A stretch of DNA of 5,525 bases from a virus. Under the pieces are notes generated by a model. It had not been told where the DNA came from. It did no database searches and was given only the letters and a program-made list of their open reading frames with translations. How positions within the stretch are numbered: position 1 is the stretch's first letter; every line of letters begins with the position of its first letter. Location of the stretch: UHGV virus genome UHGV-0388295; one strand, written 5' to 3'. This document shows positions 564 through 5,525 of this stretch, in pieces. Position numbers and translations under genes: made by a program.

Positions 564-869
564 TTATTTTGTTTGATTGTTTTTCATTTCTTCGTTTACG
601 TGCAGGATGAATATGAATGTTGCGGTCAGGATGTCTTCCCATTCTTTTTTGGCTATGTGTTCTTCGGCTTCCTCTTTAGTGTCGAATTCCTTTCCGTTCA
701 AGAGCGATCCGCACATTGTGATCACCCATTTGTTTTTTTTGTTGCGGATCAGCACGAATATGCCGTTTTCCGATTGCTCTCTTTCTTCGATTTCGAGGTT
801 TACGCTTTCGATTTCGTTCTCTTTTTTTCCGCTTTCAGCAAGTAGCTGTTTTCTGAATTTTTTGTCCAT
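564..869 (-). CDS. Hypothetical protein (101 aa). The C-terminal half resembles an AP2/Arm-type DNA-binding domain.
   Basis: The segment NKWVITMCGSLLNGKEFDTKEEAEEHIAKKEWE fits the GkW…G…fxTkeEAe…a pattern of integrase Arm-DBD / AP2 folds. The stop (TAA 566..564) lies 3 nt before the VP1 ATG. Confidence 0.55.
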   Translation of the reverse strand: MDKKFRKQLLAESGKKENEIESVNLEIEEREQSENGIFVLIRNKKNKWVITMCGSLLNGKEFDTKEEAEEHIAKKEWEDILTATFIFILHVNEEMKNNQTK

Positions 870-870
870 G

Positions 871-1041
871 TTACTTGGTTTTTGTTGTTGTCGATACTTC
901 GATTGTGTCGATTTTGATTCCGTTTGCTTTGAGGTAGTGTTTGTGAGTGCATCCTTGCTCCATGATTACGGCAGCTGCGGCGCCGATTGCGGCTGCTATT
1001 ACCGCGATCCATTTTACGATTTTCTTTGCTTTTTCATTCAT
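871..1041 (-). CDS. Small membrane protein (56 aa) with an N-terminal TM helix. It is not in the supplied ORF track, which appears to omit ORFs under 60 aa. Candidate lysis or membrane-anchor protein.
   Basis: Translated by hand: MNEKAKKIVKWIAVIAAAIGAAAAVIMEQGCTHKHYLKANGIKIDTIEVSTTTKTK. A basic N-terminus is followed by a 20-residue hydrophobic stretch. The start overlaps the upstream stop (tATGAaTGA), and the stop is followed after 1 nt by the next gene's ATG (TAAcATG). Both junctions are classic translational coupling. Confidence 0.5.
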   Translation of the reverse strand: MNEKAKKIVKWIAVIAAAIGAAAAVIMEQGCTHKHYLKANGIKIDTIEVSTTTKTK

Positions 1042-1393
1042 AGTTCAATGATAATTGAGTGTCGGTTTTTTTGATCATTACTATCCTTCTGATAATAGGT
1101 TCGTACAGTTGTTTTTTTTCGTTGTATATCCAGTTGCTTACCTCGTAGAAGCTGATGCCGGTTCTTTGTGGTTTTTGAGTTTCTACGTATTCCTTGTCGA
1201 ATGTTTCTCCGTCTTCTGTCACGTAGAATGTTCCTTCGTATTTGAAGTTTTGTTTGGATACTGCTTCTACACCGATTAGTTTTACAAGATTAGTGGATCT
1301 GTCTCCGATGTCTCCTCTTCCTTTGGAGATTTTATTATCCTGTTTCTGGTCAATATATTCTCTATTTTCCTGATTGCGAATTCCGTTTCCCAT
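1034..1393 (-). CDS. Hypothetical protein (119 aa) in the accessory region.
   Basis: The ATG lies 3 nt after the Rep stop (TGAaatATG). The protein has a polar, basic N-terminal third followed by a beta-rich segment (FKYEGTFYVTEDGETFDKEYVE). Codon usage matches the neighbouring genes. No homology was recognised. Confidence 0.55.
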   Translation of the reverse strand: MGNGIRNQENREYIDQKQDNKISKGRGDIGDRSTNLVKLIGVEAVSKQNFKYEGTFYVTEDGETFDKEYVETQKPQRTGISFYEVSNWIYNEKKQLYEPIIRRIVMIKKTDTQLSLNYE

Positions 1394-4039: not shown

Positions 4040-5525
4040 TTATAAATTTGGAATTTGTTTTGCTGACATTACTCGACGTGCTGTTACGTCGAACGCTACT
4101 TGTACCCAGAAGTTCTGTGAACTTAATCTCGACTCTGCGAATATGCTGTTGTATATTGTAGGGTCGATGTATGTCGATGCGTTTTTGATCGAGCCGTTAG
4201 TATTTTCTTCGTATACTCTGTTTAAGCACATGAATGCTAAAGGCATTCCCGCGGCGAATTCGCCGTACGTTTCGTTCACGTCTGTTGTGTATTCGATCCA
4301 TGACGGTTGTTTTCCTAATGATTGGTACGTTTGTTTGTAGTTTTCAGTGGTTTCTGTGCTCCATGCAGCTGCTTCTTCTGCTATCAGTTCTTGAAATCCG
4401 ATTGCGTCCAACGTTGGCTTATGGAAGTCATCCATATTTTGCAGTCTTGTCCACCATTTGTTGCCTTGGCTGTAATCGATTCGGGGAGTAATCGATCCTA
4501 AGGCCATGATCATGCTTGGTTCTGTGCATTTGATTTTCAAGCCCCTTCCGGATTTGTACATGGTTGCGACTCCTCGGCCGGCAAGTGTTCCTAATGGCTC
4601 TTCCTCTGTTGCTGAGTTCGATACGATTTCGTCGAATGCGATTTCGCTCTGCATTCCGCCGCAGAATATAGGAGATTCGGGTAGTGTCGTGCTTCTGATT
4701 CCGTATGTCGCCTCTCTCCATGCCTGGTAGGTACCGTCTGTAATGGCTACGCGGTTCAGCATGTTGAAAATCTTCTTTTGGAGGATCAGAGCATCCATCG
4801 TAAGTTTTCCGTCGCTCACATCTACCGCCGTGATCGCGTTGATCCCTCCGGTCGTTCCGTCGATCCATTCGGTGTTCAGCCAGTTGTTGAACCTGTCGCT
4901 GAGGTATGTTTTTACCGCTAATCCCGCTTGCGAGAACCATGCGTTTGAGCTGTGATATGTTTTTGTGCGGTCGTAATTCGGCAGGTCGAGAGTCCCTGTT
5001 GCTGCCCCGTATGGCAATTTTCCATTATTCATTATATATGCCGAGGAGCTGGGTGCTGCTAAGATTGCACTCCGTTCGTCGTCGATGTTTTTTAATGGAA
5101 ATTGTGTTAGTTTGATTTTTTGGTTATTCGGCATTGTTATCGGATGTTCTCCGTCTAAACCCATGTTGTATGCGATCTTGATGCTCTTTTTGATTTTGTA
5201 TGCGAAGACTTTGGTTGCCTTCTTCGGGTCCTTCGGCTCCCTGAGCCCCAGCGCTTCCGGATCTGTTCGTTCGAATATAAAAGAGTCTCCGAGTTTTGTT
5301 AGTTTGTTGGTTTTTAATGTAGGATTTTCCGGATCATTCGTTAGAAACTGGATTTCATTGACCGTTTCGGGTGAGACGTTCTCCTCGAACTCTATCTTGA
5401 TGTACTTCGGAAGTTTTTCCGACGGTTCGATGTGGTATGTTGTAGTCTTGTTGGTCTTCCATGTTGTTGCCCAGGTGACTCCGCCTCCCATGCTGATGCT
5501 CTTCCAGATATGGTCTACTCCAGTG
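4040..5525 (-). CDS. VP1: Major capsid protein VP1, C-terminal part (stop TAA at 4042..4040). The ORF stays open to the window edge.
   Basis: The 483-aa ORF carries VP1-like motifs: AWFSQAGL…Y, LQKKIFNMLNRVAITDGTYQAWREATYG, LGTLAGRGVAT, PSWIEYTTDVNETYGEF, and a C-terminus …RRVMSAKQIPNL. The 34 nt upstream of the annotated Met, out to position 5525, are stop-free in the same frame (…VTGVDHIWKSIS-MGGG…). This part joins the N-terminal part at 1..560 to give about 681 aa in total. Confidence 0.9.
   Translation of the reverse strand, partial: TGVDHIWKSISMGGGVTWATTWKTNKTTTYHIEPSEKLPKYIKIEFEENVSPETVNEIQFLTNDPENPTLKTNKLTKLGDSFIFERTDPEALGLREPKDPKKATKVFAYKIKKSIKIAYNMGLDGEHPITMPNNQKIKLTQFPLKNIDDERSAILAAPSSSAYIMNNGKLPYGAATGTLDLPNYDRTKTYHSSNAWFSQAGLAVKTYLSDRFNNWLNTEWIDGTTGGINAITAVDVSDGKLTMDALILQKKIFNMLNRVAITDGTYQAWREATYGIRSTTLPESPIFCGGMQSEIAFDEIVSNSATEEEPLGTLAGRGVATMYKSGRGLKIKCTEPSMIMALGSITPRIDYSQGNKWWTRLQNMDDFHKPTLDAIGFQELIAEEAAAWSTETTENYKQTYQSLGKQPSWIEYTTDVNETYGEFAAGMPLAFMCLNRVYEENTNGSIKNASTYIDPTIYNSIFAESRLSSQNFWVQVAFDVTARRVMSAKQIPNL

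Follow-up and report, generated by a model that had tools for sequence, protein, structure and literature searches.

The virus genome UHGV-0388295, a stretch of 5,525 nt that was analysed in full (the window), carries on its minus strand a gene for a 56-aa protein, p56 (MNEKAKKIVKWIAVIAAAIGAAAAVIMEQGCTHKHYLKANGIKIDTIEVSTTTKTK). This gene is real and strongly conserved, and it is under strong purifying selection. Its product combines a predicted membrane-targeting helix with a cysteine, Cys31, at the end of a lipobox-like E-Q-G-C sequence. The sequence comparisons are most simply interpreted by placing p56 in a lineage of small prolipoproteins of microviruses, with E-Q-G-C as an unusual lipobox. 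No other product of the genome is predicted to be targeted to the membrane, and this makes p56 the natural lysis candidate of the virus. Taking all versions of such a function together, we regard the case for a role in lysis as evenly balanced, perhaps with a slight lean in its favor. That p56 acts more specifically as a lipidated single-gene lysis effector is a tentative proposal, to which we give less than an even chance.

The p56 gene was intact and encoded exactly 56 aa in all 35 usable relatives (about 83–85% nucleotide identity). A small transmembrane open reading frame (ORF) kept in related genomes, which the first-pass annotation of this sequence had suggested looking for, is thus present throughout this set. 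The ratio of nonsynonymous to synonymous substitutions (dN/dS), pooled and calculated according to Nei and Gojobori (NG86), was 0.083, the lowest of the seven genes (pilot protein 0.09, Rep 0.10, VP3-like protein 0.11, capsid 0.14, p101 0.27, p119 0.50). A search of 5.8 billion proteins returned 186 clusters of p56 homologues (at 90% identity), nearly all of them 56 aa long and located on contigs of about 5.5 kb. The sole name found among these clusters was ‘hypothetical protein [Microviridae sp.]’. We consider p56 a real gene, as had been proposed, because it is intact in 35 of 35 relatives, has a very low dN/dS, concentrates its nucleotide diversity at third codon positions (0.044, 0.029 and 0.222 for positions 1, 2 and 3, respectively) and has 186 clusters of homologues. 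It had been called ‘unlisted’ in the first-pass annotation, but this means nothing more than that it falls below a 60-aa ORF cutoff; p56 is already included in public gene calls and has one entry in nr (‘MAG TPA: hypothetical protein [Microviridae sp.]’). One could object that an ORF of only 56 codons without a match to a known family is spurious and owes its conservation to an overlapping element rather than to a protein. However, the substitutions track the reading frame, dN/dS is low, the ORF is never disrupted among the 35 relatives, and a distant genus carries a homologue at another genomic position. The spurious-ORF reading is effectively refuted.

All sequence features that had been described for the protein, namely a basic N-terminus, a hydrophobic helix, a Cys after the hydrophobic core and a polar tail rich in Thr and Lys, are present. 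The n-region contains four lysines (K4, K6, K7 and K10). Over the hydrophobic stretch I8–M27, the Kyte-Doolittle 19-residue mean peaks at 2.33, and AlphaFold2, run with the family alignment, predicts a helix for residues 3–29 (predicted local distance difference test score, pLDDT, ~85). Both results point to an N-terminal transmembrane or signal segment and agree with the hydrophobic helix proposed earlier. For the tail, a weak beta-hairpin with strands 31–37 and 47–53 was predicted (pLDDT ~50). There is no Pro anywhere in p56, and the helix displays small-xxx-small spacings (A13/A17, A16/G20, G20/A24). Applied to a charge of +4 before the helix and a Glu after it, the positive-inside rule predicts an N-in/C-out topology. 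The coding strand of the genome consists of 41% A and 17% T, and hydrophobic segments are therefore compositionally rare. Across the three coding-strand frames of the complete genome, the Kyte-Doolittle 17-residue mean reaches 1.5 or more nowhere but in the p56 helix, which makes p56 the sole candidate for a membrane-spanning or exported product of this virus. The four residues E-Q-G-C are unchanged in the 35 nucleotide sequences, while all four codons vary synonymously; in the alignment of the 35 proteins, Gly30 and Cys31 are invariant and E28 and Q29 are conserved at ≥90%. Heavy synonymous variation was also observed in the Ala codons of the helix.

Whether p56 is a lipoprotein was judged by the PROSITE rule PS00013, which asks for K or R in the n-region, a hydrophobic h-region and a Cys within residues 15–35. 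Its lipobox accepts [AGS] at position −1, [LIVMFYSTAGCQ] at −2 and [LIVMFWSTAG] at −3. The general features of the rule are found in p56 (K4/K6/K7/K10, helix 11–27, Cys31). At the lipobox itself, Gly at −1 and Gln at −2 fit, while Glu at −3 does not. The first-pass annotation had counted both Glu and Gln as a misfit; this is correct for −3 only. It had also rated a lipoprotein as less likely, an assessment that we would reverse. We find it more likely that p56 is a lipoprotein or derived from one, because in a homologous family, referred to as family D, the Cys is likewise residue 31 and completes a canonical lipobox, and because the other small ORFs at the equivalent locus in relatives are lipobox proteins.

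Family D comprises a 58-aa ORF (MEKVPFYRKKSFWTLLISILTALSVYFAASCTRKLVYRSSGVHCDTVQLDVRSNLKLP) in four microvirus genomes (L042–L045) whose Rep is only ~30% identical to that of the window. It is represented by 136 clusters on microvirus contigs of ~5.8 kb. The D proteins and p56 (family A) can be aligned over their full length with 30–34% identity, and the Cys is at position 31 in both. They have in common an n-region of the form M-(N)EKV..KK..W, followed by an h-region of roughly 20 residues, and a pattern in the tail after Cys31, T-[HR]-K-x4-[AS]-x-G-[IV]-x2-D-T-[IV]-[EQ]-[VL]. A gapless tail alignment anchored at the Cys gave BLOSUM62 scores of 37–39, compared to −17 ± 10 for shuffled tails, and none of 20,000 shuffles reached the score (p<5e-5). 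In hhalign, the two profiles matched at E=6.7e-5 (probability 64%) along 42 columns, in which the Cys of one falls on the Cys of the other. The lipobox of family D is canonical (A-A-S-C), with A/S/V/G/T at −3, mostly A/S/T at −2, S/A at −1 and an invariant Cys; the exceptions at −2 are Glu in 6 of 107 sequences and Gln in one. Families A and D have different helices, yet they agree in the key residues of the tail and in the placement of the Cys. Judging by these sequences, A and D form an uncharacterised family of small, predicted exported proteins of microviruses (186 and 136 clusters, all on microvirus-sized contigs). From the constraint within family A and the comparison of A with D, we conclude that both the helix and the tail of p56 are likely to matter. 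In the L042–L045 genomes, the gene is located between the VP3-like and the pilot genes (e.g. L042 5072–5248) and not between Rep and capsid; the gene has therefore been moved or exchanged between distant microvirus genera. A second Cys, C44, is nearly invariant in family D and missing from family A.

Small lipobox ORFs were also found in microviruses related to the window by their Rep, mostly in the module between Rep and capsid and beside p119-like and p101-like genes. They fall into two apparently unrelated families, B (L048, accession MG945511; L049, accession PQ007273; L052; L058) and C (L039, L071, L072, L074, L079, L084, L092), with one further lipobox ORF in L061. Homology of families B and C to p56 was not established: the hhalign probabilities of 78% and 56% are driven by helix and lipobox, and the tail alignments to p56 were no better than shuffles. 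They are thus treated as positional and architectural analogues only. In MG945511.1, the 70-aa lipobox ORF (LLSS|C, positions 1088–1300) is unannotated in GenBank, and so is the 63-aa ORF of PQ007273.1 (LMQS|C, positions 4925–5116), where the overlapping coding sequences 4792–5022 and 5113–5328 are annotated instead. These two ORFs have a common tail, ...YNTATGDSI[IV]I[RK]YEQ. L072, a contig of 6,279 bp, harbors two diverged copies of family C (95–298 and 6017–6220), and its ends are 86% identical over 357 nt. We regard this apparent tandem duplication as a probable artefact of assembly, in which sequences of two strains were joined into a chimeric terminal redundancy.

In other relatives, the region between Rep and capsid encodes an M15-type peptidase of roughly 105–130 aa (L037 4707–5078, L038 2196–2576, L040 1000–1380, L053–L055, L064, L086 and L100). 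Most of these proteins match the Pfam family Peptidase_M15_3; those of L064 and L086 were found only by jackhmmer. For some gokusho/alpa-type microviruses, among them the B. fragilis microvirus phiHBP1 (PMC13064476), the M15 peptidase is the proposed endolysin (PMC3394797, PMC9239249). The earlier statement that no lysis gene is known for such viruses is accordingly correct only in part. Lysis-associated accessory genes have been placed between VP4 and VP1, and for most such microviruses no lysis gene is known (PMC9239249, PMC3394797). All nine M15-bearing relatives lack a lipobox ORF, and at least 16 lipobox-bearing relatives lack M15. In the nine M15 genomes, we saw neither a signal peptide on the M15 protein nor a small transmembrane ORF anywhere, and their gene content offers no explanation for the route of M15 across the inner membrane. 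A search for further M15-bearing microviruses returned mostly fragments of tailed phages and one usable relative, L100. In three environmental relatives (L059 4472–4972, L063 4774–5247, L076 4386–4874), the accessory region that follows Rep codes for a DUF5675 protein (Pfam E ~1e-17), which may be another alternative lysis or accessory module. Small hydrophobic ORFs in these three genomes lie inside the DUF5675 genes in another frame and were discarded.

We infer from the sequence how p56 might be exported, oriented and lipidated, that it might act in lysis, and what its target might be. The Sec pathway would insert it into the host inner membrane such that the N-terminus stays inside and the C-terminus comes to lie outside. 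At the outer end of the hydrophobic segment, Cys31 would most likely be diacylglyceryl-modified, as in bacterial lipoproteins. The result would be a cationic, beta-hairpin-prone peptide of ~25 residues that is tethered at the periplasmic face, and the tethering would be the same whether the conserved signal or transmembrane helix is cleaved off or retained. This peptide, possibly together with the helix, may be the single-gene lysis effector of the virus, disabling a conserved step of envelope biogenesis or of peptidoglycan-precursor supply and thereby causing lysis and virion release.

Several arguments make p56 a lysis candidate. A lytic virus with seven genes needs an exit function, and the other products are a capsid protein, a scaffold-like protein, a pilot protein, Rep and two soluble accessory proteins. 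p56 is the only product able to reach the envelope. The proposed endolysin M15 sits at the same locus in some relatives and, in the genomes sampled, never occurs together with a lipobox ORF. In addition, the presence of varied small membrane ORFs at one locus matches the pattern of the single-gene lysis genes of single-stranded RNA (ssRNA) phages, where different small membrane ORFs are found at one locus in related genomes (PMC7693330). In a more far-reaching view, p56 and the D proteins would be the first single-gene lysis proteins of the lipoprotein type in any phage, and with them lysis genes would be identified for the first time in Alpavirinae-like (Bacteroidales-associated) gut microviruses. 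As a cationic beta-hairpin lipopeptide of ~25 residues tethered in the periplasm, the mature protein would kill by binding a conserved machine of envelope biogenesis (Lol, Lpt, Bam or a peptidoglycan synthase or flippase), for example through beta-strand augmentation, and would be a natural ‘protein antibiotic’ against Bacteroidota with a new target. We consider this view doubtful. Our literature search found no description of p56, and none of small lipoproteins or of transmembrane proteins for lysis in Alpavirinae-like microviruses; a single-gene lysis protein of the lipoprotein type was likewise not found.

A number of observations speak against a lipidated lysis protein. Glu at −3 breaks the classical lipobox; it is invariant here, with Asp in one variant, and due to this residue cleavage by LspA or even modification by Lgt may fail. 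Residues 1–31 are far more constrained (dN/dS 0.026) than the tail (0.167), and it is unusual for a disposable signal peptide to be the best-conserved part of a protein. The helix therefore probably has a sequence-specific role, as an uncleaved or ‘stable’ signal peptide. One relative with a family-B ORF, L088, has Lys at −1. The mutual exclusivity of lipobox ORFs and M15 is marginal (hypergeometric P about 0.06), and this value is uncorrected for phylogeny, which is a confounding factor. The closest outgroup, L047 (Rep 50% identical), does not encode such an ORF, and in many relatives a lipobox ORF and a recognisable lysin are both missing. As to other processing routes, cleavage by signal peptidase I before Q29, according to the ‘Q-rule’ of Bacteroidetes (PMC5837995), is ruled out by E28 at −1, while cleavage may occur after the AAAA run.

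The constraint on the N-terminus would also be expected if, in a corrected form of the earlier amurin idea, p56 were an uncleaved bitopic protein. Its helix would stay in the inner membrane and would itself bind and block MraY, MurJ or a similar integral-membrane enzyme or flippase that serves the lipid II pathway, in the manner of phiX174 E and LysM; Cys31 would then merely be juxtamembrane. The n-region, helix and E-Q-G-C evolve much more slowly than the tail (0.026 against 0.167), the helix is rich in Ala and Gly with small-xxx-small spacings, the Glu at −3 disfavours signal peptidase II, and p56 is the only membrane protein of the genome. What is conserved between families A and D, however, is the tail motif and the position of the Cys and not the helix, and the lipoboxes of family D and of the positional analogues B and C are canonical. 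There is also no homology to E, and the helix lacks a Pro. We therefore think that such an amurin-like mechanism is unlikely. A small protein that passes the membrane once, has a glycine/alanine-zipper-like helix and a charged tail and appears to be translationally coupled to both neighbors might also be a holin or pinholin-like permeabiliser. Oligomers of its helix would then cause the membrane potential to collapse, by which host autolysins or an unrecognised viral muralytic partner (p119 or p101) would be released or activated. No muralytic domain was detected in p119 or p101, the M15-bearing relatives lack a small transmembrane ORF, so that no pairing of holin and endolysin is seen in this lineage, and the conserved Cys and the lipobox homologues would be left unexplained. 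This function appears very improbable.

It is also conceivable that p56 is an exported lipoprotein outside lysis that alters the host surface, for example by masking or inactivating the receptor and thereby excluding superinfection or protecting the progeny from debris, as do phage Cor and the T5 protein Llp, or that changes the envelope in another way during infection. In favor of this explanation, such a role is the usual one among the small lipoproteins of similar length that are known from phages. The strong purifying selection suggests a specific protein-protein interaction, and the absence of the gene from the nearest outgroup L047 is what one would expect of an accessory function. On the other hand, a genome of seven genes would be left without an identifiable lysis function, no defence or exclusion model of PADLOC was matched, and the fact that lipobox ORFs and M15 do not co-occur is not predicted by an exclusion role. 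The mature part of ~25 residues also lacks the acidic signal after the Cys that directs lipoproteins of Bacteroidota to the surface (PMC5080379). In sum, a surface role is improbable, though it is the main alternative outside lysis.

If p56 is indeed a lipidated lysis protein, its closest functional analogy would be to the release lipoproteins of colicins and cloacins, ahead of phiX174 E. These lysis proteins (e.g. pCloDF13 BRP, ColE1 Kil) have precursors of ~45–55 aa with an N-terminal signal peptide that ends in a Cys and a mature part of about 25–35 aa; with 56 aa and 25 residues after a putatively lipidated Cys, p56 fits this type in size. For colicins, one small gene suffices for (quasi-)lysis, and the signal peptide is reported to be stable and to contribute to lethality, which has a parallel in how extremely the p56 helix is conserved. 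In sequence the two are not similar (Pfam, including the colicin lysis models, and NCBIfam). The colicin proteins are plasmid-borne in Enterobacteria, have a canonical lipobox and activate OmpLA, whereas p56 is viral and has Glu at −3. With phiX174 E, an inhibitor of MraY, p56 has in common that it is a small microvirus protein with one N-terminal hydrophobic helix, that its virus encodes no other membrane protein and that the helix belongs to its most constrained part. However, the two are not homologous. E is overprinted on another gene while p56 is free-standing except for an 8-nt overlap, and the E helix contains an essential proline and inhibits MraY in a SlyD-dependent manner, whereas p56 has no Pro. 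The predicted N-in/C-out topology with a short exported tail, the conserved lipobox-like Cys and the lipobox-bearing homologues also set p56 apart. By these sequence features p56 is outside the phiX174 E family, and the term ‘amurin-like’, which the first-pass annotation had used with reference to E, does not apply in that sense.

Other small phage proteins resemble p56 in part. Like the o-spanin Rz1, p56 could be a small phage lipoprotein with a lysis role, both being putative in its case; but Rz1 is rich in Pro, which is missing from the p56 tail, and needs an inner-membrane spanin, a holin and an endolysin, while the p56 genome has no second membrane protein. An endolysin gene adjacent to p56, as would be typical of a holin, is not found either, as the genome contains no endolysin. 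Cor (phi80, T1, N15) and Llp (T5) are, like p56 by prediction, small exported lipoproteins encoded by phages, but their mature domains comprise ~50–60 aa, they belong to tailed coliphages and they are not homologous to p56. The lysis proteins of ssRNA phages (LysM, which acts on MurJ, and MS2 L) are very short membrane proteins of minimal genomes and labile between lineages (PMC7693330), as is the case for the gene content at the p56 locus; they have no similarity to p56, which is strongly conserved within its genus and not fast-evolving. The M15 genes of Alpavirinae-like microviruses, including phiHBP1, share with p56 the accessory locus that separates Rep (VP4) from capsid (VP1), but encode a soluble enzyme that was acquired horizontally and never accompanies a lipobox ORF in the sampled genomes.

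Searches of family databases did not assign p56 to any family in Pfam (E≤1), NCBIfam or PADLOC, nor to a PHROG lysis or spanin family; the best PHROG match was not significant (E=0.039) and was to a family of unknown function. For families B, C and D, no significant family was found in Pfam, NCBIfam, PHROGs or PADLOC. No muralytic domain was detected in the other six gene products by PHROG, Pfam and NCBIfam. When 1.84 billion representative proteins were searched with a profile, the only matches were the same tight p56 family and a single 769-aa protein, P0131. The latter is rich in Cys and Pro and contains five copies of ‘...PLKVNGVCVDTIQVSATHKLKC...’ that resemble residues 36–56 of p56 (LKANGIKIDTIEVSTTTKIK). 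Its E-value of 5e-12 is summed over the repeats, and since the match is amplified by these five copies, we judged it to be probably a coincidence.

The window is a complete circular microvirus genome with seven genes (capsid, VP3-like, pilot, Rep, p119, p56 and p101), all of them on the minus strand (Table 1).

Table 1. Coordinates of p56, its parts and the other genes in the window
Feature	Position	Strand	Remarks
p56 coding sequence	871..1041	-	56 codons plus TAA stop at 871-873; ATG at 1039-1041
Basic n-region MNEKAKKIVK, codons 1-10	1012..1041	-	predicted cytoplasmic; dN/dS 0.023; pattern common with family D
Ala/Gly-rich hydrophobic helix WIAVIAAAIGAAAAVIM, codons 11-27	961..1011	-	putative signal-peptide h-region or transmembrane anchor; dN/dS 0.042
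Lipobox-like E-Q-G-C, codons 28-31	949..960	-	Cys31 is TGC, 949-951; preceded by ...VIMEQG
Cationic 25-residue tail THKHYLKANGIKIDTIEVSTTTKTK, codons 32-56	874..948	-	predicted exported; weak predicted beta-hairpin; dN/dS 0.167
Overlap of p119 stop and p56 start, ATGAATGA	1034..1041	-	8 nt
p119, upstream neighbor of p56	1034..1393	-	119-aa ORF; accessory, Rep-to-capsid module
p101, downstream neighbor of p56	564..869	-	101-aa ORF; start 1 nt past p56 stop
Rep	2308-1397	-	303 aa; phrog_942, E=1e-31
DNA-pilot protein	3555-2347	-	402 aa; PHROG pilot families
VP3-like ORF	4035-3712	-	107 aa; scaffold-like
Major capsid gene	starts 560, through position 1, on from 5525, ends 4040	-	681 aa

The tight coupling to both neighbors that had been noted for p56 is borne out by the 8-nt overlap with p119, which suggests translational coupling, and by the single nucleotide between the p56 stop and the p101 start codon (TAAcATG). 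An overlapping or abutting junction was kept in 42 of 42 related genomes checked. In the relatives with called genes (L096–L099), the overlap of p119 and p56 is a 4-nt ATGA (e.g. L096 2345–2348), and in most of the 42 relatives the sequence directly upstream of the p56 ATG is unlike that of the window and fits the 4-nt arrangement. In the lineage of the window, the end of p119 appears to have been shifted by one codon-plus-frame change. p119 evolves fast, and p119-like ORFs adjoin the lipobox ORFs in L048 and L049. Homologues of p101 are encoded in L047, L048 and L049, and the gene is kept directly upstream of the capsid gene even at ~47–50% Rep identity. Neither p119 nor p101 matched a family in PHROG, Pfam or NCBIfam.

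A megablast query of INPHARED with the whole window and a tblastn query with p56 had no match, and the genus of this virus is thus absent from deposited phage records. The best Rep match in these records is 50% identical and the best capsid match 56–63%, all of them to vertebrate faecal microviruses. Many relatives with roughly 83–85% nucleotide identity are found in IMG/VR and other public assemblies; going by their IMG ids, we take most of the source samples to be human-gut metagenomes. The contigs encoding p56 are all free genomes of ~5.6 kb without host flanks. A complete genome of the same microvirus genus (L095, NZ_JACWEU010000076.1), with a capsid that is 83% identical, is contained as a free contig of 5,673 bp in the draft assembly of Acinetobacter lwoffii SU1904; it was the single match of the host search among the genome_contigs. 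We do not take A. lwoffii for the host, since this contig is most likely a contamination rather than a host link.

Microviruses outside the phiX174 group are among the commonest phages in the human gut. Only some of them carry an M15 peptidase (PMC3394797, PMC9239249). With p56, there is now a concrete lysis candidate of 56 codons that is abundant in the human gut, and a second abundant genus encodes a homologue with a lipobox. Even without a role in lysis, small lipobox ORFs recur in these genomes and are unannotated in MG945511 and PQ007273. If p56 does lyse cells, the single-gene lysis proteins would gain a new class, and the envelope of Bacteroidota would be shown to have a step that could be targeted by drugs.

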